NCBI GenBank assembly: GCA_025210345.1 | Contig: JAOARX010000013.1 | Coordinates: forward strand, 143,135 to 207,134 | Source of the DNA: Pelagimonas sp. | GTDB taxonomy: Bacteria > Pseudomonadota > Alphaproteobacteria > Rhodobacterales > Rhodobacteraceae | DNA: 64,000 bases | Reading direction: 5' to 3' | Shown: one piece after another, positions 12,966 to 23,088 of the stretch | Numbering within the stretch: position 1 is the stretch's first letter | Layout: every line of letters begins with the position of its first letter | Position numbers and translations under genes: made by a program | Notes under the pieces: generated by a model | Databases searched by the model: none | What the model was told of the DNA's origin: nothing | The model's input: the letters and a program-made list of their open reading frames with translations, nothing else

Positions 12966-13328
12966 ATGAGTAATGTAGAAAAAGAACAGGTGTTGATTAC
13001 GGCACAATGCGAAGCAGACCGTCTGACAGAGCAACGAGAAGAGATTGCGCAGACATTGGCGGAACTGGTGGCAGATATCCGCACCATCCAGAAGGATTTG
13101 AGACAAGGGGAAGTCGATCGCAAAAGCGAGACCGGCAAGTTGCTGGGAGAGCTGAGGTATTGGCTGCGTGCAGCCCGTGAAACGGAGGCTGAACTTGAAA
13201 TTATCAGACGAAAAGAGGCAGGGATTGGTGACGCCTACGGGATCGATCTCAGAGCCGCAGAGCTTGCGGTCAGGTGCCGCCTGGATAGCCTCCGCGCCTG
13301 CTGCGACACAGGAAGAATTCCTGAATGA
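12966..13328 (+). CDS. GTA g1-like small protein (putative small terminase/DNA-packaging factor)
   Basis: About 120 aa beginning MSNVEKEQ. First gene of the head-tail cluster directly upstream of the large terminase. The six-frame ORF begins earlier at 12903. Confidence 0.55.
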   Translation: MSNVEKEQVLITAQCEADRLTEQREEIAQTLAELVADIRTIQKDLRQGEVDRKSETGKLLGELRYWLRAARETEAELEIIRRKEAGIGDAYGIDLRAAELAVRCRLDSLRACCDTGRIPE

Positions 13329-13347
13329 CCTTGATGAGGGAGCGCTG

Positions 13348-14604
13348 ATGGCGCTCCCCTATTTGTTCGATTTCTGGGCGCATGAGCATCAGATCGCCCC
13401 CGGGGGGGACTGGCGTTCCTGGGTGATCCTGGGGGGGCGTGGCGCAGGCAAAACCCGCGCGGGCGCCGAATGGGTGCGCCAGATGGTCGAAGGTCCCAAG
13501 CCTCTGGATGCGGGGCGGTGCAAACGGATGGCGCTGATTGGGGAAACGTTTGATCAGGCGCGCGAGGTGATGATCTTTGGGGACAGCGGGATTTTGGCCT
13601 GTTCCCCCAAGGACCGCAGTCCCAGCTGGGTATCGACACGGCGCTGTCTGGTTTGGCCCAACGGGGCCGAAGCGATGGTGTTCTCGGCCCATGATCCCGA
13701 AGCCCTGCGCGGGCCGCAGTTTGATGGCGCTTGGGTGGATGAACTGGCCAAGTGGAAGCGCGCGCAGGACGCTTGGGATATGCTTCAATTTGGACTGCGC
13801 CTGGGGGATAGCCCGCGCGTCTGTGTGACCACGACACCGCGCAATGTTGCTGTGCTGAAAGATTTGCTTGATGCGCCTTCGACCGTGCTGACCCGTGCCC
13901 CCACCGAGGCGAACCGGGCACATCTGGCCAAGTCGTTTCTGGATGAGGTGCGCGCACGCTATGCCAATTCGGCACTTGGACAGCAAGAGCTGGACGGGAT
14001 CTTGCTGGATGAGGTCGACGGTTCGTTGTGGTCGCGTGAGATGCTGGATGGGGTGCGTTCAGGTCGGGTGCCGGAGCTTTCGCGGATCGTCGTGGCCGTA
14101 GATCCGCCCGCGGGGGAAGGAAAGGCATCGGATGAATGTGGCATTGTCGTCGCAGGCGCCGTGCTTGACGGGGCGCCTTCGGATTGGCGGGCCTTTGTGC
14201 TGGAGGACGCCACCGTTCAGGGGCTTTCGCCGCTTGGGTGGGCCAATGCCGTCGATGCGGCGGTGCAGCGATGGGGTGCGGACCGGGTCGTGGTCGAAGT
14301 GAACCAGGGGGGCGCGATGGTCGAAAGCGTCTTGCGGCAGGCCAATGCGTTGATGCCGGTGCGCAACGTCCACGCCACACGCGGAAAAATCGCCAGGGCC
14401 GAGCCGGTGTCGGCCCTGTATGAACAGGGGCGCGTAACCCATGGCCAAGGCCTACGCGAGCTCGAAGCACAGATGTGCCTGATGACGCATCGTGGTTTCG
14501 AGGGCGCCGGCAGTCCTGATCGCGTGGACGCATTGGTTTGGGCGCTGACAGATCTGATGCTGGATTGGACCCCCTCCGCCCGACCGGGCGTGCGCAGTTT
14601 ATAG
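13348..14604 (+). CDS. GTA terminase large subunit (g2)
   Basis: MALPYLFDFWAHEHQ...GGRGAGKTRAGAEW Walker A plus C-terminal nuclease region. Typical RcGTA-type terminase N-terminus. Confidence 0.85.
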   Translation: MALPYLFDFWAHEHQIAPGGDWRSWVILGGRGAGKTRAGAEWVRQMVEGPKPLDAGRCKRMALIGETFDQAREVMIFGDSGILACSPKDRSPSWVSTRRCLVWPNGAEAMVFSAHDPEALRGPQFDGAWVDELAKWKRAQDAWDMLQFGLRLGDSPRVCVTTTPRNVAVLKDLLDAPSTVLTRAPTEANRAHLAKSFLDEVRARYANSALGQQELDGILLDEVDGSLWSREMLDGVRSGRVPELSRIVVAVDPPAGEGKASDECGIVVAGAVLDGAPSDWRAFVLEDATVQGLSPLGWANAVDAAVQRWGADRVVVEVNQGGAMVESVLRQANALMPVRNVHATRGKIARAEPVSALYEQGRVTHGQGLRELEAQMCLMTHRGFEGAGSPDRVDALVWALTDLMLDWTPSARPGVRSL

Positions 14605-14629
14605 AGGGGGATCACACGAATGACCAAAA

Positions 14630-14655
14630 GGGTCTGCCAAGTGCAGGCCCTTTTT
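14630..14655 (+). terminator. Terminator-like hairpin with T-run 26 bp after the terminase stop, inside the GTA operon
   Basis: GGGTCTGCCAAGTGCAGGCCC stem-loop followed by TTTTT, then an AT-rich stretch. May act as attenuator or internal terminator. Confidence 0.35.
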
Positions 14656-14829
14656 GTTTGGAACAGCTGTCTGTTTTTAATGTTGTTTGTCAATTGTTTG
14701 GGCGTTGCGGCAACAGCGTGCGCTGCTGTCAACGCTCATAAACCCTGGAAGGTTAGGTTCATTTTCAACGGCGGAATGACCCGCCCCTGACGCGGCGCGA
14801 GCCGCCTGCGAGGAAAAGGAGCGAGACGC

Positions 14830-16032
14830 ATGGTATTGGATTTCTTCCGGCGCGGTGGTGGATCAGACGCAACCCCGACCGGGGCACCCGAGGCTAAGGC
14901 TTCGGCCACGGGTCGCGTGGTGGCGCATATGAGCGCGGGACGCGTGGCCTGGACGCCCCGCGACACGGTTTCGCTGACCAAGCAGGCGTTTTCCGGCAAT
15001 CCGGTTGGATTTCGCGCGGTCAAGCTGATCGCGGAAGCCGCAGCTGCCCTGCCATTGGTCTTGCAGGATGCGGATACGCGCTATGCGGATCATCCGATCC
15101 TCAAGCTGATCACAGCGCCCAACCCGGCGCAGGGCCGCGCTGAATTGTTCGAGGCGCTCTATGGCCAGATCCTGTTGTCTGGCGATGGCTACGTCGAGGC
15201 GGTCGCCGGTGAGGGGGGATTGCCGTTTGAGTTGCACGTTTTGCGCTCGGATCGGATGCGTGTGCTGCCGGGGGCGGATGGCTGGCCCGTGGCTTATGAA
15301 TACGCCGTCGGCAACCGCAAACATCGTTTCAATGTGACCGGGCCGGTTTCGCCCATTTGTCACGTCAAGGCATTCCATCCACTGGATGACCACTACGGCC
15401 TGTCCCCCTTGCAGGCGGCAGCCCAGGCGGTGGATGTACATAATTCGGCCAGCCGCTGGTCGAAGGGGCTATTGGACAATGCCGCCCGACCCTCTGGGGC
15501 GATTGTCTATCAGGGTGCCGAAGGGCACGGCCACCTGAGCCCCGAACAATACGACCGCCTCGTCTCCGAGATGGAGGCCCACCATCAAGGCGCCCGCAAC
15601 GCGGGTCGGCCGATGCTGCTGGAAGGCGGTCTGGATTGGAAACCGATGGGGTTTTCCCCCAGCGATATGGAGTTCCAAAAAACCAAAGAGGCCGCCGCGC
15701 GCGAAATTGCCGTTGCCTTTGGCGTGCCGCCGATGCTGTTGGGCATCCCCGGCGAGGCGACCTATTCCAACTACGCCGAAGCGCACCGGGCGTTTTATCG
15801 CCAGACGGTGCTGCCGCTGGCGTCGAAAGTGTCCACCAGTGTCGGGCGATGGCTGTCGCAGTTTGTCGGGGAACAGGTCGCTTTGAAACCCGATCTGGAT
15901 CAGGTTCCCGCGCTTGCGACGGAACGCGATGCACAGTGGAACCGCGTGGCAGGGGCCGATTTCCTGACCCAGGCGGAAAAGCGTCAGATGCTGGGCCTGC
16001 CGGCTTTGCCAGAGGATTCGTTGGATGAGTGA
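14830..16032 (+). CDS. GTA portal protein (g3), HK97-family portal
   Basis: 400 aa, AAGGAG RBS. Portal-like central region (LLSGDGYVEAV..., NSASRWSKGLLDNAARPSGA...). Confidence 0.9.
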   Translation: MVLDFFRRGGGSDATPTGAPEAKASATGRVVAHMSAGRVAWTPRDTVSLTKQAFSGNPVGFRAVKLIAEAAAALPLVLQDADTRYADHPILKLITAPNPAQGRAELFEALYGQILLSGDGYVEAVAGEGGLPFELHVLRSDRMRVLPGADGWPVAYEYAVGNRKHRFNVTGPVSPICHVKAFHPLDDHYGLSPLQAAAQAVDVHNSASRWSKGLLDNAARPSGAIVYQGAEGHGHLSPEQYDRLVSEMEAHHQGARNAGRPMLLEGGLDWKPMGFSPSDMEFQKTKEAAAREIAVAFGVPPMLLGIPGEATYSNYAEAHRAFYRQTVLPLASKVSTSVGRWLSQFVGEQVALKPDLDQVPALATERDAQWNRVAGADFLTQAEKRQMLGLPALPEDSLDE

Positions 16033-16252
16033 GATGCGCCATAAGGCCGAAGCCTTCGCCTGCGCGCCCGCGCTGCGCCTTGAGGCCCATGAGCGGGTAA
16101 GCAAGCTGCATTACGACCAGTTCAACGAAAAGCTGGTGCGCATGGAGATGCTGATGGAACGCTTGGAAAAACGTTTGTGGTTAACCGTTTACGGAGTGGC
16201 GGGCGTCATTCTTGCCGAAGCATTTCAAAGCCTGATGAAAGCCGCGCCCTAA
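16025..16252 (+). CDS. GTA g3.5-like small protein
   Basis: 75-aa ORF overlapping the portal stop. Positional equivalent of RcGTA g3.5 between portal and protease. Confidence 0.55.
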   Translation: MSEMRHKAEAFACAPALRLEAHERVSKLHYDQFNEKLVRMEMLMERLEKRLWLTVYGVAGVILAEAFQSLMKAAP

Positions 16253-16274
16253 GCGCGTGAAGAAAGGACGAAAC

Positions 16275-16817
16275 ATGGATCTGGAACATAAATTCTGCCG
16301 TTTCGATGCCGAGGTCACTGTGGCCGAAGGGTCAAAGATCGAAGGTTACGCCAGCCTGTTCGGCGCCTGTGATCAGGGTGGCGACGTGGTGGCCAAAGGG
16401 GCCTATGCCCGTTCGCTGAAATCACTGAATGCGGATGGTCGCGCGGTTAAAATGCTGTGGCAGCACGATCCGGCCCAACCGATCGGGATCTGGGACGAGG
16501 TGTGCGAAGACGCAAAGGGCCTGTATGTGAAAGGCCGCTTGCTGGACAGCGTGGAAAAGGGCCGAGAAGCCGCCGCACTGATCGAAGCGGGCGCGATTGA
16601 CGGATTGTCGATCGGCTATCGCACGGTGAAAGCCGCAAAGAATGACAAGGGCCAGCGGCTCTTGAAGGAACTGGAGCTTTGGGAAGTGTCCTTGGTGACT
16701 TTCCCGATGCTTCCCAGTGCGCGTGTCGCCGCCAAGGGGGAGAGCCCCGAGGAAGACGGCATGCGTGAATTGGCGGAGGCCCTTGAGGGCATGCGCCGTA
16801 ACCTGGCGGGCGGCTGA
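16275..16817 (+). CDS. GTA prohead protease (g4), HK97 family
   Basis: MDLEHKFCRFDAEV...KMLWQHD. AAGGAC RBS before the ATG at 16275. The six-frame ORF begins at 16257. Confidence 0.85.
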   Translation: MDLEHKFCRFDAEVTVAEGSKIEGYASLFGACDQGGDVVAKGAYARSLKSLNADGRAVKMLWQHDPAQPIGIWDEVCEDAKGLYVKGRLLDSVEKGREAAALIEAGAIDGLSIGYRTVKAAKNDKGQRLLKELELWEVSLVTFPMLPSARVAAKGESPEEDGMRELAEALEGMRRNLAGG

Positions 16818-16838
16818 CGCGCGCCACTCATAGGGGAA

Positions 16839-18023
16839 ATGTCCATGAGCACAACCGAGACCACGTCTCGGACCGGGGAAGATATGCCTCCGGTCGCCCG
16901 GGTGAGTGCCGCAATGGCGGGACTGATCGGGGACTTCAAGGCCTTGCAGGCCGACCTTCAACAGAAGCTGAACAAACAGGAAGAGCGACTGACTATGCTT
17001 GATCACAAATCTGCCCTCGCGGTGCGCCCCGCACTGTCGACCCACGCCGAGGTCGATGCACCGCACCAAAAGGCGTTTGATGCCTATTTGCGTTCCGGCG
17101 ACGATGATGCGCTGCGCGGTCTGGAAATCGAAGGCAAGGGTATGACCACTGCCGTGAATTCGGATGGTGGCTATCTGGTGGATCCGCAGACCTCGGACAG
17201 CATCCGCGGCCGTCTGGAAGCCAGCGCGTCCGTCCGTGCGATTTCGAATGTCGTCAATGTCGAGGCACAGGCCTTTGATGTCCTGATCGACCAGAACGAT
17301 ACCGTCGCGGGTTGGGCGGCGGAAACCGCTTCGGCGGCAGAGACCGGCACGGCCTCGATCGACCGTATCTCGATCCCGCTTTACGAGCTGAACGCAATGC
17401 CCAAAGTGTCTCAGCGCCTGCTGGACGACAGCGCGTTTGATATCGAAACCTGGCTGGCGACCCGTATCGCTGACAAGTTCATCCGCGCAGAGGCAGCGGC
17501 CTTTGTGAACGGTGACGGTGTCGACAAGCCCCGTGGCTTCCTGAACCACACCCAAGTGGCGGATGACAGCTGGTCCTGGGGCAATCTGGGCTATGTGACC
17601 ACCGGTGTTGCCGATGACATCGACAACGGCGACTCGCTGATCGACCTGGTCTATACCCTGGGTGCGCAGTACCGCGCCAATGGCACCTTTGTGATGAACT
17701 CGAAAACGGCGGGCGCATTGCGCAAGTTGAAGGATGCGGATGGTCGTCACCTGTGGGCCGATGGTTTCTCGGCAACTGAACCCGCGCGCCTGCTGGGCTA
17801 TCCTGTTCTGACCGCAGAAGACATGCCCGACATTGATGCGGATGCGACCCCGATCGCCTTTGGTGATTTCTCGAACGGGTACACCATCGCCGAGCGTCCG
17901 GACATCCGTGTTCTGCGCGACCCCTTCAGCGCCAAACCCCACGTTCTGTTCTATGCGTCCAAACGCGTGGGCGGTGACGTGAGCGATTTTGCGGCCATCA
18001 AGCTGCTGCGCTGCGCGGTCTAA
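16839..18023 (+). CDS. GTA major capsid protein (g5), HK97 fold
   Basis: 394 aa. N-terminal scaffold-like delta domain with a coiled coil, then an HK97-type capsid body. Confidence 0.9.
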   Translation: MSMSTTETTSRTGEDMPPVARVSAAMAGLIGDFKALQADLQQKLNKQEERLTMLDHKSALAVRPALSTHAEVDAPHQKAFDAYLRSGDDDALRGLEIEGKGMTTAVNSDGGYLVDPQTSDSIRGRLEASASVRAISNVVNVEAQAFDVLIDQNDTVAGWAAETASAAETGTASIDRISIPLYELNAMPKVSQRLLDDSAFDIETWLATRIADKFIRAEAAAFVNGDGVDKPRGFLNHTQVADDSWSWGNLGYVTTGVADDIDNGDSLIDLVYTLGAQYRANGTFVMNSKTAGALRKLKDADGRHLWADGFSATEPARLLGYPVLTAEDMPDIDADATPIAFGDFSNGYTIAERPDIRVLRDPFSAKPHVLFYASKRVGGDVSDFAAIKLLRCAV

Positions 18024-18175
18024 ACGCTGCCAGAGATGAAGGGTGGGGGCATCTCCACTCTTCCCAGGGCGCGCGCAGGCTCGTTGTCCAGCTGTCCCCT
18101 CCGCCAAAGGCAGCGTAGGCGGCGCGCGTCCGCCAGATCGCTGGGGATGTTGGTTCAGGATTTCGGAGAAGAAAC

Positions 18176-18769
18176 ATGATGTTGGTGGAAGAAACACAGG
18201 TGCCCGAGGCGGCCCTTCCGGTGGCGGAGCTGAAACAGCATCTGCGTTTGGGGAGCGGGTTTGCAGAAGATGACGTGCAGGATCCGGTTCTGAAGTCTTT
18301 TCTGCGCGCAGCATATGCCGCAATCGAGGCGCGCACCGGCAAAGCGCTGATCCAACGCAGCTTTGTCGCAACTCTGGACGGGTGGCGCGAGATCACCGGT
18401 CAGGTGCTGCCGGTCTCTCCGGTGCAATCGATCACGGATATTTCGATTGTGGATCAATTGGGTATCGGTGCAGAGCTGGCAAGTTCGAGCTATCGGTTGA
18501 AACAGGACATGTTCCAGCCCGAGGTCAAGCCGATCGGTGGTTGCCTTCCTGGTGTTCCAAGTGGCGGCAGCGTCGAGATCCGTTTCCAGGCGGGCTATGG
18601 CCCGGCGTTTGATGACATCCCGGCAGATCTGCGCCAGGCGGTGCTGTTGCTGGCGTCGCACTACTATGAATACCGCGATGAAACCGCGTTGGGTCAGGGC
18701 TGTATGCCCTTTGGCGTGACCAGCCTGATCGCGCGTTATCGTCCCGTCCGCCTGGGGCTGGGCGCATGA
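18176..18769 (+). CDS. GTA head-tail adaptor (g6), gp6-like
   Basis: 197 aa in the conserved position after the capsid gene. RBS GGAGAAG. Confidence 0.75.
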   Translation: MMLVEETQVPEAALPVAELKQHLRLGSGFAEDDVQDPVLKSFLRAAYAAIEARTGKALIQRSFVATLDGWREITGQVLPVSPVQSITDISIVDQLGIGAELASSSYRLKQDMFQPEVKPIGGCLPGVPSGGSVEIRFQAGYGPAFDDIPADLRQAVLLLASHYYEYRDETALGQGCMPFGVTSLIARYRPVRLGLGA

Positions 18770-19104
18770 GCGCCCCGCGTTTGAACCGCCCCCTGACCCT
18801 GGAAGCACCGACGCGCTCAGCTGATGGCGCGGGTGGCTATGCCGAGACATGGACCGAACTGGGCGTTTTGTGGGCCGAACTTGATGAGCGGACGGGGCGA
18901 CTGGACAAGGGCGAAGGCGCGACCTTCTCCGACATTGCCTTTCGCATCACGGTGCGCGCCGCCCCGGTCGGGGCTTCGAACCGCCCTGTTGCCGGTCAGC
19001 GTTTTCGCATGAACGCGAGGCTGTTTCGCATCGATGCAGTCAGTGAAACCGGTGCAAACGGGTTCTTCCTGATCTGCTCCTGTCACGAGGAGGTCGCGGT
19101 ATGA
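18766..19104 (+). CDS. GTA head closure/stopper protein (g7)
   Basis: 112 aa. ATGA overlap with g6. Head-tail joining family. Confidence 0.75.
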   Translation: MSAPRLNRPLTLEAPTRSADGAGGYAETWTELGVLWAELDERTGRLDKGEGATFSDIAFRITVRAAPVGASNRPVAGQRFRMNARLFRIDAVSETGANGFFLICSCHEEVAV

Positions 19105-19508
19105 GCTATGCGGTTTCAAGCGCTTTGCAGGCGGCGATCTATGCGCAACTGCAAGCGGATGGTGCGCTTTCCCTATTGGTGGGTGACAGCATCTTTGATG
19201 CACCACCTGTCGGCACCTTGCCCCCATTGTACGTGTCGCTGGGCCCCGAGGCGGTCCGCGAGGCCGGAACCGGCGGGTGCGATGGCGCCTGGCACAGTTT
19301 CACAGTTTCGGTCGTGACAGAAAATGCCGGTTTCCAGACCGCAAAAGACGCGGCCGTTGCCGTGAGTGATGCCTTGCATGATGCGGATCTGACGCTGAGC
19401 CGGGGGCATCTTGTCGGGCTGTGGTTTTCCAAGGCCCGGGCCTATCGCGAAACAGACGATTTGCGCCGTGTCGACCTGACATTCCGCGCACGCGTTGAAG
19501 ACGAATAA
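19101..19508 (+). CDS. GTA tail terminator (g8), DUF3168-like
   Basis: 135 aa. ATGA overlap with g7. Confidence 0.7.
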   Translation: MSYAVSSALQAAIYAQLQADGALSLLVGDSIFDAPPVGTLPPLYVSLGPEAVREAGTGGCDGAWHSFTVSVVTENAGFQTAKDAAVAVSDALHDADLTLSRGHLVGLWFSKARAYRETDDLRRVDLTFRARVEDE

Positions 19509-19530
19509 CCTATTCCAAAGGAGTGAGATC

Positions 19531-19953
19531 ATGAGTGCTCAAAAAGGTAAGGATCTGTTGGTCAAGATTGATTTGACCGGGGACGGCCAGTTCGAAACGC
19601 TTGCCGGGCTGCGGGCAACGCGCATCAGTTTCAACGCTGAACAGGTCGATGTGACCACGCTGGACAGCGCGGGTGGTTGGCGAGAGTTGCTGGCAGGTGC
19701 CGGTGTCAAATCGGCCAGCATCAGCGGTTCGGGCGTGTTCAAGGATGCGGGAACCGATGAACGGGCCCGTCAGATCTTCTTTGACGGAGAAACCCCTGAT
19801 TTCCAGGTGATCATCCCCGAGTTCGGCACGGTCGAGGGCCGCTTTCAGGTGGGCAGCATTGAATATGCGGGCACCTATAATGGCGAAGCGACCTATGAGC
19901 TGTCGCTGGCGTCAGCGGGCGAGCTGACCTTTATCGCTGTGCCGGTAGTCTGA
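19531..19953 (+). CDS. GTA major tail (tube) protein (g9), TP901-1 type
   Basis: MSAQKGKDLLVKIDLTGDG... with AAAGGAG RBS. 140 aa. Confidence 0.8.
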   Translation: MSAQKGKDLLVKIDLTGDGQFETLAGLRATRISFNAEQVDVTTLDSAGGWRELLAGAGVKSASISGSGVFKDAGTDERARQIFFDGETPDFQVIIPEFGTVEGRFQVGSIEYAGTYNGEATYELSLASAGELTFIAVPVV

Positions 19954-20285
19954 TGGGCAATCCTTGGCGGGGGGATGTGACGCTGATCATGAATGATGAG
20001 CGCCATGTAATGCGCCTGACCTTGGGCGCATTGGCAGAATTGGAAGCAGGGCTGCAAAGTGGCTCGCTTGTGGATCTGGTTCAGCGTTTCGAGGGGGGAG
20101 CATTTTCCACTCGGGATGTTCTGTCCCTGATCGTCGCGGGTCTTCGCGGCGGCGGCTGGCAAGGGGATGCCCGCGATCTGATGCACGCGGACATCGAAGG
20201 CGGACCAGTCGCCGCAGCCAGGGCCGCAGCGGCGCTGCTGGTCCGCGCCTTCGCGGTGCCCGAGGGCGATCATGGCGACGCGTGA
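19953..20285 (+). CDS. GTA tail assembly chaperone (g10)
   Basis: 110 aa. ATGA overlap with g9. GTA-family protein N-terminus MGNPWRGDVTLIMNDERHVMRLTLGALAELE. Confidence 0.7.
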   Translation: MGNPWRGDVTLIMNDERHVMRLTLGALAELEAGLQSGSLVDLVQRFEGGAFSTRDVLSLIVAGLRGGGWQGDARDLMHADIEGGPVAAARAAAALLVRAFAVPEGDHGDA

Positions 20286-21093
20286 CGGCAATATTGACTG
20301 GCCTGTCCTGATGCGGGCCGGGATGCGCGGGCTGGGCCTTAAACCCTGGGAGTTCTGGGATCTTACACCGGCTGAGCTGCAGATCCTGCTGGGACACTCT
20401 GGGGGGCTATCATCCGCCATCAAGCGCGACCATGTACAAAACGGGACGCGTTTGATCGAAATATGGGAGCCCATTCGCGCCCAGGTTCAACCAGGAGATA
20501 CGGTCCGCCTGCTTGCCGGGTGCGACAAGCGTTTTGAAACCTGTCGGCTGAAATTCCTGAACGGTGCGAATTTTCAGGGCTTTCCGGATCTTCCCGATGA
20601 GGATTGGGTCAGTGTGGCGCCGGGGCTGTCATCGAACTACCTCGGGCGGGAGCCGCAGATGACACCGATTGTCACCTCCGCAAGAGGATGGATAGGCACG
20701 CCCTATCTGCATCAGTGTTCGCGCAAGGGGGCCGGGTGTGATTGCCTTGGGCTATTGCGTGGCGTCTGGCGTGAGGTGATCGGACCAGAGCCCGAGGTGG
20801 TCCCTGCCTACAGTCGGGACTGGTCGGAAACAGGTCCTGATGAGCTGCTCTGGGCGCGGTTATCCGACTATCTGATCCCCAAGCCCATCGACGACACCGA
20901 AACGGGTGATGTGGTGTTGTTTCGCATGCGGTCGGGGGCAGTGGCCAAACATATCGGCATTCAGACCCAAGTGGGGTCTGAGCCTGCCTTCGTGCACGCC
21001 TATTTTCGGCATGGTGTTTGCGAAACTTCGTTCAATCGCGCCTGGGCCCGCCGCACGGTGGCCCGGTTTGCCTTTCCACAGGAGATTTTCTGA
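20272..21093 (+). CDS. Chimeric ORF: g10.1-like N-terminus (~42 aa), then the C-terminal ~50 aa of the DUF2163/BR0599 hub protein (g13), then the complete NlpC/P60 phage cell-wall peptidase (g14); tape measure and distal-tail genes absent
   Basis: Residues 1-42 (MATRDGNIDWPVLMRAGMRGLGLKPWEFWDLTPAELQILLG) look like a g10.1/rcc01693-family protein. Residues ~60-110 (LLAGCDKRFETCRLKFLNGANFQGFPDLPDEDW) are the conserved extreme C-terminus of BR0599/DUF2163. From MTPIVTSARGWIGTPYLHQCSRKGAGCDCLGL onward (internal ATG at 20668) is an NlpC/P60 peptidase with Cys and His catalytic residues. There are no stops between the three parts. Confidence 0.65.
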   Translation: MATRDGNIDWPVLMRAGMRGLGLKPWEFWDLTPAELQILLGHSGGLSSAIKRDHVQNGTRLIEIWEPIRAQVQPGDTVRLLAGCDKRFETCRLKFLNGANFQGFPDLPDEDWVSVAPGLSSNYLGREPQMTPIVTSARGWIGTPYLHQCSRKGAGCDCLGLLRGVWREVIGPEPEVVPAYSRDWSETGPDELLWARLSDYLIPKPIDDTETGDVVLFRMRSGAVAKHIGIQTQVGSEPAFVHAYFRHGVCETSFNRAWARRTVARFAFPQEIF

Positions 21094-22150
21094 TGGCGAC
21101 AATCCTTCTTTCAGCCGCAGGCGCGGCACTTGGCAATACCGTGGGCGGTACAGCGCTGGGCATGTCCATGGGGACAGTTGGCCGTTTCCTGAGGTGTCCC
21201 TGAGTGCGTTTGCGCCCGCGGTGCCGGTGGTGTCGACCTTTATGGATTTGCCTTTGATGACCGGCAGCGAAGACCCGATCGCGCCGCATGTGGCGGTCTC
21301 TTCCGATCCGTGGCCCGGGAGTGTCGCCGTTTATGATGCGGCGCAAGACGACGGGTATGGGCTGAACTCCGTGCTCTATGAGCGGGCCGTCATCGGCGTC
21401 ACCGAGACAGATCTGAGCGCGGCGCAGGTAGGCCTGATGGATCGCGGCGCGCCGCTTGAGGTCAACCTGTCGTCCGGGACCCTTGAGTCGGTCAGCGAAG
21501 AGCAGCTGCTGGCAGGGGCGAACCTGATGGCCATCGGAGATGGGAGCCCCGGAAACTGGGAATTGTTCCAGTTTCAACAGGCCACATTGCTTGACGGCAA
21601 TCGCTGGCAGCTTTCACAGCGGCTGCGCGGTCAGGCCGGGACCGATGGCGCTATGCCTGCGGTTTGGCCGGCCGGGTCCAAGGTGGTGCTGATGAATGGC
21701 GCGCCCCAGCAGATTGATTTGACCTCTGCCAACCGGCGCGTTGCACGCCACTATCGCATCGGACCGGGGGATCGCCCCTACAGTGACCCAACCTATTCGC
21801 ATGCGATACATGCTTTTGATGGGAACGGGTTGCGCCCCTATCGTCCCGCGCATGTCCGCCTGGTGGATGTCGGTGGCGATCTACAAGTCAGCTGGATACG
21901 TCGAACACGCTTGGACGGGGACAGTTGGGAGTTGTATGAAGTCCCCCTGTCCGAAGACAGCGAGAGCTATCTTGTCCGTGTGAAAAATGGGGCGCAGGTG
22001 CTGCGAGAAGAGCAGGTTTCCTCGCCGAACTGGACCTATGTTGCGGCAGATCAGGCCGCCGACGGCTATGGTTTGGGATGCACTGTGGAAGTGGCTCAAA
22101 TCTCGGCGCAATATGGCCCGGGGCTCTTCGCTGAGGCAGAGGTGTTCTGA
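21093..22150 (+). pseudogene. Remnant of GTA host-specificity/tail-fibre protein g15: 36-codon N-terminus, frame break near 21185-21200, then ~315 C-terminal codons in another frame
   Basis: ATGA overlap with the preceding ORF. The Gly-rich N-terminus MATILLSAAGAALGNTVGGTALG is typical of g15 and hits TGA at 21201. A different frame continues to 22150. Full-length homologues are ~1300 aa, so only ~1.06 kb survives here. Confidence 0.6.
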
Positions 22151-22278
22151 GCTTAACCGGGTGTTGAATTCCGGGTGTTAAATTCTAGGTGCGCACGGAT
22201 GAGTTTCCGGGCGCACCCTATTGTGATTTCCTCTCGTGTGACTATTTGCTAAGCTCCATCCAGCCAAGGAGGAAGTCG

Positions 22279-23088
22279 ATGGCACAGGAACGCGCAAAAC
22301 TGGCCCAGATTGACCCGGTTTGGGCCCGCATCAAGGCCGAGGCCGAAGATGCTGTGAAAACAGAACCTCTGTTGGGGGGGATGGTGCACTATTCCATTTT
22401 GCACCACCCTTCGCTTGAGCGGGCGCTGAGCTATCGGATCTCGTTGAAACTTGCGAATGGCGAAATGTCGGAACAGATCCTGCGCGAGATTTGCGACGAA
22501 GCCTATGGTGCCGATCCCGAGCTGGCGGTCGCCGCTCGCGCCGATATTGTGGCCACCCACGACCGTGATCCCGCCTGCCATCGTTTTCTCCAGCCGTTGC
22601 TGTTTTTCAAAGGGTTTCAGGCGGTTCAGGCGCATCGCATTGGACATTGGCTCTGGTTGCAGGGGCGCAAAGACTTGGCGAGCTTTTTTCAAATGCGCTC
22701 ATCCGAGATGTTCGGGATCGATATTCACCCTGCGGCACGTGTCGGGCGCGGCATCATGATTGACCACGCGCATTCCATTGTTATTGGTGAAACTGCGGTT
22801 GTCGGCGACAATGTATCGATGCTGCATTCTGTGACCTTGGGTGGAACCGGCAAAGAGGATGAAGACCGCCACCCCAAGATCGGTGATGGCGTGTTGATTG
22901 GTGCTGGCGCCAAGGTGTTGGGCAACATTCGTGTTGGAAAATGCTCACGCATTGCAGCTGGATCGGTTGTCCTGAAAGAGGTGCCGCCCTGTTCCACGGT
23001 CGCCGGTGTTCCGGCGCGCATCGTTGGGGAAGCTGGCTGTGACCAACCCTCAGTGGAAATGGATCAGTTGCTGGGTTCATCGAAATAG
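22279..23088 (+). CDS. cysE: Serine O-acetyltransferase
   Basis: AGGAGG RBS. Hexapeptide-repeat C-terminus (GIDIHPAARVGRGIMIDHA...GAKVLGNIRVG). Conserved downstream neighbour of Rhodobacterales GTA clusters. Confidence 0.9.
   Translation: MAQERAKLAQIDPVWARIKAEAEDAVKTEPLLGGMVHYSILHHPSLERALSYRISLKLANGEMSEQILREICDEAYGADPELAVAARADIVATHDRDPACHRFLQPLLFFKGFQAVQAHRIGHWLWLQGRKDLASFFQMRSSEMFGIDIHPAARVGRGIMIDHAHSIVIGETAVVGDNVSMLHSVTLGGTGKEDEDRHPKIGDGVLIGAGAKVLGNIRVGKCSRIAAGSVVLKEVPPCSTVAGVPARIVGEAGCDQPSVEMDQLLGSSK

Follow-up and report, generated by a model that had tools for sequence, protein, structure and literature searches.

A three-gene chimera and two deletions in the tail region of an RcGTA-type gene transfer agent cluster from a Pelagimonas-like Roseobacter

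We analysed a 64-kb stretch of DNA, hereafter called the window, from the 207-kb contig of a Pelagimonas-like Roseobacter metagenome-assembled genome (MAG; NCBI/JGI, 'Pelagimonas sp.'). On its plus strand, at approximately 13168-22150, the window carries a chromosomal gene cluster of the type of the Rhodobacter capsulatus gene transfer agent (RcGTA), i.e. a cluster for a domesticated phage-like particle. The genes g2, g3, g4, g5, g6, g7, g8, g9, g10 and g14 are intact, and g10.1, g13 and g15 are present as fragments. The g10.1 and g13 fragments share one open reading frame (ORF) of 273 codons with g14, and g15 is split into a short stub and a C-terminal piece. The window proteins were searched with profiles of Pfam, with TIGRFAM-type profiles (TIGR02216, TIGR02218 and TIGR02219) and with NF048004, and the proteins of an intact reference cluster from Sagittula sp. 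S175 (L002) were run against the window by tblastn. The relatives used for comparison are 80 loci, which were picked by g14 similarity from a scan at one genome per bacterial species. Furthermore, 5.8 billion clustered proteins were searched and metagenome contigs were scanned.

Three protein families follow each other in the chimeric ORF. Its residues 8-54 match PF09550 (Phage_TAC_6, E 4.7e-15) and residues 9-49 match positions 3-42 of the 58 positions of TIGR02216, the rcc01693 family to which g10.1 belongs. This segment scores 38.9 bits, under the cutoff of 56.1 bits; a full-length g10.1 protein has approximately 58-65 aa and ends with RPMGRxRLxELxAAFPD, a motif present in the relatives and absent from the window. 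The hub protein g13 is represented by residues 36-111 (PF09356, Phage_BR0599, E 5.8e-22) and 44-123 (TIGR02218 baseplate hub, positions 186-261 of 266). According to the domain limits given by Bardy et al. (2020; PMC7296036), the g13 remnant comprises the final part of the oligosaccharide-binding domain, the latter half of the Fe-S-binding domain and the clip domain. A complete hub would include the PF09931 attachment domain, to which the window protein has no match, and four cysteines as Fe-S ligands, two of which are kept in the remnant (Cys249 and Cys256) and two deleted (Cys149 and Cys158, all in L002 numbering). Finally, residues 133-269 cover the whole profile of the phage NlpC/P60 peptidase TIGR02219 (1-134 of 134, E 3.1e-46) with 157.2 bits against a cutoff of 81.9, and this g14 part keeps all C, H, D and E columns that are invariant in the 80 relatives. 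E-values between 1e-15 and 1e-46 rule out chance similarity. The tblastn searches with the Sagittula proteins placed the parts in the same order, g10.1 residues 3-42 at 20290-20409, g13 residues 200-290 at 20377-20646 and g14 residues 1-140 at 20659-21078. Hence, the single frame of g10.1, g13 C-terminus and g14 that had been recognised in a first-pass annotation, made from the sequence alone, is confirmed by profiles and tblastn alike, and both peptide strings quoted there are present. It had also been considered that residues 1-110 might represent one natural protein family. However, among the 5.8 billion clustered proteins the combination of g10.1 with a hub C-terminus occurred nowhere except in the cluster of the window's own population, and on that ground the chimera is not a natural protein family.

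The canonical gene order g10-g10.1-g11-g12-g13-g14-g15 is found in 78 of the 80 relatives. In Sagittula, g10 is followed by g10.1 (64 aa), g11 (219 aa), g12 (210 aa), g13 (294 aa), g14 (143 aa), g15 (1327 aa) and cysE. Compared to the relatives, the window has lost the 3' end of g10.1, the tape measure gene g11, the gene g12 for the distal tail protein and residues 1 to approximately 209 of g13; no tblastn match to g11, g12 or g13 residues 1-199 exists anywhere in the 64 kb. An internal deletion that took away the tape measure and distal tail genes along with the larger part of the hub gene and left an in-frame scar, as proposed in the first-pass annotation, is therefore supported, although its dimensions had to be revised. 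Projected onto 75 relatives, the missing DNA has a median size of 2007 bp (range 1975-2215), i.e. approximately 2.0 kb instead of 2.3 kb. Moreover, approximately 209 and not 250 residues of g13 are gone, so that approximately 85 survive in the chimera rather than 45, and the spacer of about 15 residues assumed between the g10.1 and g13 parts does not exist: g13 homology sets in right at the junction, with 40 residues derived from g13 ahead of the motif AGCDKRF.

The junction could be mapped to a few codons by comparison in codon register. In the relatives, g10.1 reads ...TPAELxLxLG-E-G-x-G-[A/L/G]-RPMGRxRLxELxAAFPD and g13 reads ...GRLxVLSG-A-A-x-G-L-SGAIKRD..., and across the junction the window reads ...TPAELQILLGHSGGLSSAIKRD. 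Leu40 is the last residue that is solely g10.1-like and Ser47 the first that is solely g13-like; therefore, the crossover lies in codons 41-46 (20392-20409), which narrows down the region near 20395-20440 of the first-pass annotation. The interval between these two residues is attributable to either parent, as the g10.1 pattern L-L-G-E-G-x-G-[A/L/G] and the g13 pattern L-S-G-A-A-x-G-L are quasi-repeats in the same register. At the DNA level, the parental stretches of the relatives share the patchy quasi-repeat CTG-NNN-GGC-GAN-GNN-NNN-GGN-CTG in the junction register, a similarity of approximately 24 nt. A short quasi-repeat is the kind of similarity that would support slipped or illegitimate recombination, most likely the process that acted here. 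Microhomology at this site, which the first-pass annotation proposed to look for, is thus a putative one, deduced from the patchy quasi-repeat in the relatives. The junction is seamless and in frame, and the second junction, inside g15, is also seamless.

The read-through into g14 had been described as part of the chimera that implies the deletion. The frame is indeed open, but the reading frames indicate that the read-through is a separate event and not a consequence of the deletion. In the relatives, g13 ends with ...GGSRR*, the TGA of which forms an ATGA overlap with the start of g14, and both genes lie in different frames (offset 2) in 76 of 79 loci. The DNA encoding GGSRR* doubles as the Shine-Dalgarno sequence GGGAG of g14, an arrangement that is conserved in the relatives. 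In the window, the +1 frame at the end of g13 still reads SGGSRR* and has its TGA at 20660-20662, the g13 remnant upstream shares the frame of g14, and frame 0 upstream of the affected zone encodes the g13-like EDWVSVAPG. Furthermore, the distance from the Trp112 codon to the ATG of g14 is 51 nt compared to 50 nt in the relatives. Taken together, the additional nucleotide and the SGGSRR* in the +1 frame place a net +1-nt frameshift within 20620-20640, which bypasses the old stop codon. The shifted g13 tail translates as LGREPQM and joins g13 to g14. The own Shine-Dalgarno sequence of g14 (20648-20652) and its ATG, which is at 20659 and not at 20668 as first given, are both intact, and from these signals g14 can be predicted to be translatable independently of the chimera. 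In the NCBI annotation (PGAP), g14 stands by itself as the 144-aa protein MCT4557417.1, one of the cluster proteins MCT4557408-MCT4557418 (locus-tag prefix N4A61).

The third lesion, like the frameshift an addition to the first-pass annotation, concerns g15, which encodes the megatron, a protein of approximately 1300 aa with iris, adhesin-like, peripheral, central and fibre-binding domains. The window does not contain a protein of this composition, and NF048004 scores 355 bits compared to a cutoff of 800. The ORF at 21093-21203 is a 36-codon stub with 32 residues of the megatron N-terminus (MATILLSAAGAALGNTVGGTALGMSMGTVGRF), followed by LRCP and a stop codon. In another frame, 21200-22150 encodes the remnant that corresponds to positions 982-1298 of the 1299 positions of NF048004. 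Projected onto 55 relatives, this second deletion has a median size of 2866 bp (approximately 2.9 kb); it removed residues approximately 34 to 990 with an out-of-frame junction, and tblastn with g15 residues 35-1010 gave no match in the 64-kb window. According to the domain map of Bardy et al. (PMC7296036), the two g15 pieces represent a portion of the iris helix and precisely the fibre-binding domain. The remnant has no clear start codon, and three gene callers chose three different starts (GTG 21194, GTG 21221 and ATG 21257). Two candidate repeats at this junction were set aside. A 5-nt 'GTTTC' microhomology needs the 'FPE' of the window to be homologous to the 'FPE' of the relatives, which is uncertain. 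The exact 12-nt repeat GGGGACAGTTGG at 21170-21181 and 21917-21928 (76% identity over 33 nt), of which one copy overlaps the junction, was judged to be due to chance because the g15 N-terminus accounts fully for its first copy.

As the source is a MAG, a collapse or mis-join during assembly could in principle have created the junctions in a genome that has an intact cluster. However, the 273-aa chimera is present in three records, the MAG contig, a contig from the Logan assembly of SRR21418663 (L001) and the contig Ga0400167_067834 of the JGI metagenome 3300039008 (L162). The Logan contig is 100% identical to the window over 6965 bp, the scar included, and the JGI contig shows the same first junction and the frameshift with three single-nucleotide differences in 1438 bp. 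Hence, the scar occurs in a second population sample, and the worry about an assembly collapse expressed in the first-pass annotation is countered by an independent contig. Both contigs start inside g9 (L162 at window position 19715, L001 at 19722), which hints at some complexity of the assembly graph nearby. But the patchy similarity of approximately 24 nt between the parental segments is far too short for an assembly collapse, and three separate lesions, with both junctions seamless, would each need to be artefacts. An artefact is therefore hardly credible.

A close relative of the window's lineage with an intact cluster was found in none of the collections searched, i.e. genomes, protein clusters and metagenome contigs. 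The best match to the window g14 in the species-representative genome scan is 66% identical, the scan of metagenome contigs revealed nothing above 64% and no second chimera, and the 90% protein clusters of seven cluster genes have members from the window's population only. Overall, the proteins of the nearest relatives are approximately 60-77% identical to those of the window. In alignments with up to 80 relatives, the window breaks none of the near-invariant columns in g5-g10, g14, cysE and the remnants of g13 and g15. The mean identity ranks and the singleton deviations at near-invariant columns likewise give no signal of accelerated decay in the surviving genes, the divergent g14 aside. This absence of decay in the remnants, together with the full-length head genes, suggests recent deletions, so that the loss of the tail genes would be evolutionarily recent. 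As a separate observation, g14 is the most divergent of 39 taxa (mean identity 0.624 compared to a median of 0.721) in a set of relatives that was picked by g14 similarity, for which reason the value is given as a note only; the other cluster genes are no outliers.

We consider it probable, with a probability of roughly 85%, that three lesions inactivated the tail and baseplate module of a chromosomal RcGTA-type cluster and that the chimera is an accidental by-product. The mechanism of the deletions and the loss of function are what we infer from the anatomy of the locus. In such a scenario, a seamless deletion of approximately 2.0 kb, most likely through illegitimate or slipped recombination between the short, patchily similar stretches in g10.1 and g13, would have removed the g10.1 3' end, g11, g12 and the hub attachment domain of g13, with the frame kept by chance. 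Within the final codons of g13, a net +1-nt frameshift would skip the ancestral TGA of the ATGA overlap and let the frame continue into g14, and an out-of-frame deletion of approximately 2.9 kb would have reduced g15 to the 36-codon stub and the fibre-binding domain. The open frame of 273 codons is an accident of one in-frame deletion and one frameshift. Because such an outcome has a chance of approximately 1 in 6, it is no evidence of design. Siphovirus-type tails start from a complex of the tape measure, chaperones, the distal tail protein and the hub. Lacking the tape measure, the distal tail protein, the hub's attachment domain and the core of the megatron, the window element would form no tail-initiation complex and could make heads at most. 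The complete g11 and g12 and the full-length g13 and g15 expected of a functional gene transfer agent (GTA) are all missing from the window, and gene transfer by this element has almost certainly been lost. In RcGTA, the knockout of g14 alone already results in empty heads without tails (PMC7296036). Some points weigh against this interpretation. The microhomology at the junction was deduced from relatives, as the intact ancestral sequence of the window's lineage was not found in the collections searched. The Logan contig may stem from the MAG's own reads, in which case the independent support comes mainly from the one JGI contig of 1.4 kb. Furthermore, the C-terminal remnants of g13 and g15 as well as g14 keep every invariant residue, as continued selection would also produce, and the search for tail genes covered 64 kb of the genome, so that a second tail module may be located elsewhere.

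The last of these points leads to the assumption that tail and baseplate proteins are supplied in trans by another tail module of the genome, either GTA-like or from a prophage, and that particles are still made. Split or replaced components of 'incomplete' clusters were indeed raised by Shakya et al. (PMC5721377), and no decay is seen in the head module, in g14 or in the fibre-binding domain. Nevertheless, homologues of g11, g12, the N-terminal part of g13 and the core of g15 are absent from the window, the truncated remnants in situ indicate loss rather than relocation, and the out-of-frame g15 and the frameshifted g13 tail resemble neglect. Moreover, the tail parts of RcGTA interlock specifically, with the interface between hub and megatron alone burying 3550 A^2 (PMC7296036), and we regard such a complementation as improbable.

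Even less probable, in our view, is a fusion of g10.1, the g13 C-terminus and g14, perhaps together with the free fibre-binding domain, that is under selection for a new role, e.g. as a hydrolase of the cell wall that has gained a targeting domain. It would agree with the frame that is open through three former genes, with the invariant residues of the g13 C-terminus and g14 that are all kept, and with the divergence of g14 (0.624 compared to a median of 0.721 among 39 taxa), which could mean altered selection. But given one deletion and one frameshift, the frame would stay open by chance in approximately one of six cases, no such protein family exists in the 5.8 billion protein clusters, the g13 piece is a domain fragment without half of its Fe-S ligands, and g14 retains its own Shine-Dalgarno sequence and start codon and is called alone by PGAP. 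One further fusion of g13 with g14 was found, the 438-aa protein P0002 (L163, 4218-5534; ENA ERZ25074695, ctg307019_2x_l), in which the g13 tail is in the frame of g14 with the linker ...RGRREPEM compared to ...LGREPQM in the window. In P0002, however, g13 is full length and the remaining cluster is complete, and the contig carries a 2x label, so that an indel error of sequencing may have produced the fusion. P0002 was rejected as a sign of a natural fusion family, being a single case from a contig of low coverage. Taken more broadly, it appears quite unlikely that selection keeps the head module, g14 (alone or fused) and the free fibre-binding domain, be it for a tail-less or trans-complemented particle or with the chimera as a new cell-wall-active protein. 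If true, the locus would represent a natural intermediate, a GTA in the course of repurposing rather than loss.

Inactivation of the tail module, the reading we prefer, fits well into the literature on GTA clusters. With the RcGTA of R. capsulatus (g1-g15; Bardy et al., 2020; PMC7296036) and its Rhodobacterales orthologues the window shares the gene order g2-g10, the gene families and the position of cysE, but it lacks g11, g12, g13 residues 1 to approximately 209 and g15 residues approximately 34 to 990, and it has g10.1, the g13 remnant and g14 in one frame. Putative pseudogenes have been reported in RcGTA-like clusters, in large as well as in small ones (Shakya, Soucy and Zhaxybayeva, 2017; PMC5721377). 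The window contains at least nine RcGTA homologues in one region, by which Shakya et al. (2017) define a 'large cluster', and it also displays the gene order and the cysE context of such a cluster. According to Kogay and Zhaxybayeva (2024; PMC10883770), GTAs have repeatedly become pseudogenised or been lost altogether in alphaproteobacteria, and these authors suggest that pseudogenised clusters indicate cheater lineages of recent origin. The pseudogenised or incomplete 'large clusters' of these two studies (PMC5721377, PMC10883770) resemble the window in combining at least nine RcGTA homologues with gene fragments that lack the ancestral ORFs. In contrast to them, the lesions of the window are mapped within a few codons, and its in-frame chimera of three genes was found neither elsewhere among the 5.8e9 protein clusters nor in the metagenome scan.

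Damaged clusters are also present in two of the 80 relatives. In Antarctobacter jejuensis KCTC 42009 (L012, 8650-14359), the RcGTA-type cluster starts at residue 55 of g12, no head genes exist within 8.6 kb upstream, and the frame of g15 breaks near residue 603. In a Roseovarius MAG (L053, 9387-18276), the cluster starts at residue 97 of g13, and g15 contains an insertion of approximately 3.8 kb. Like the window, both belong to the Roseobacter group and have missing or broken genes in the tail region, but the breakpoints differ, and the head genes that are missing there are intact in the window. Hence, the window cluster is a further, well-mapped case of the already documented GTA pseudogenisation and not a new mechanism or system. 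Its value is that it shows, cleanly mapped and in a natural lineage of the Roseobacter group, how the loss of a GTA begins, with the heads intact and the tail and baseplate gutted, and it offers a concrete candidate for the idea of a recently emerged cheater lineage (Kogay and Zhaxybayeva; PMC10883770). It is also relevant for surveys. Such a cluster passes a count of at least nine homologues and would be scored as a GTA producer, yet it almost certainly makes no tailed particles. Therefore, studies on the presence or absence of GTAs should check g11-g13 and the length of g15.

The coordinates of the cluster and of its lesions are compiled in Table 1. The intact g10 is 77% identical to g10 of Sagittula (tblastn), and its last 14 nt also belong to the beginning of the chimeric ORF.

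Table 1. Features of the RcGTA-type cluster and its downstream neighbour in the window.
Feature	Position	Strand	Evidence or remark
g2 large terminase	13168-14604	+	full-length profile match
g3 portal	14830-16032	+	full-length profile match
g3.5	16025-16252	+	
g4 prohead protease (S78)	16257-16817	+	full-length profile match
g5 capsid, HK97-type	16839-18023	+	full-length profile match
g6	18176-18769	+	head-tail connector/completion proteins g6-g8, full-length profile matches
g7	18766-19104	+	head-tail connector/completion proteins g6-g8
g8	19101-19508	+	head-tail connector/completion proteins g6-g8
g9 tail tube (TP901-type)	19495/19531-19953	+	full-length profile match
g10 tail assembly chaperone	19953-20285	+	PF11836 Phage_TAC_11, E 1.3e-28, profile positions 1-95 of 96
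Chimeric ORF, g10.1 N-terminus :: g13 C-terminus :: g14	20272-21093	+	273 codons and stop
g10.1 (rcc01693 family) N-terminal segment, codons 1-40	20272-20391	+	compared with g10.1 of 45 relatives
Deletion junction 1, codons 41-46 (G H S G G L)	20392-20409	+	codon-register comparison with relatives
g13 hub remnant, residues ~211-294	20410-20658	+	TIGR02218 profile, tblastn, alignment
Net +1-nt frameshift zone	20620-20640	+	spacing and frame compared to relatives
g14 Shine-Dalgarno GGGAG; g14 ATG; vestigial g13 stop TGA	20648-20652; 20659-20661; 20660-20662	+	read from sequence
g14 NlpC/P60 cell-wall peptidase, complete	20659-21093	+	TIGR02219 157.2 bits, full profile
g15 (megatron) N-terminal stub	21093-21203	+	32 homologous codons, then LRCP and TGA stop
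Deletion junction 2, inside g15	21189-21199	+	last g15 N-terminal codon TTC 21186-21188; first secure g15 C-terminal codon CTG 21200
g15 C-terminal remnant, fibre-binding domain	21200-22150	+	NF048004 positions 982-1298 of 1299; PF23666
cysE serine O-acetyltransferase	22279-23088	+	profile matches

With respect to g9, two independent short-read assemblies break at nearly one spot in this conserved tail-tube gene (19715-19722). The break point suggests a fork in the assembly graph, possibly caused by co-occurring related strains. Downstream of the cluster, cysE is a conserved chromosomal neighbour of RcGTA-type clusters, and this synteny is shared with the Sagittula locus and with L163. An Rfam scan of the window gave no match. 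Sagittula, Maliponia and Pelagimonas varians are among the 36 of 80 relatives in which g15 is followed by a DUF7742 gene. This gene is absent in the window, in which only 128 bp separate the g15 stop codon from the ATG of cysE. Within this short spacer, at 22157-22184, a 14-nt sequence is repeated in tandem (CCGGGTGTTGAATT / CCGGGTGTTAAATT), which may represent a regulatory site upstream of cysE.

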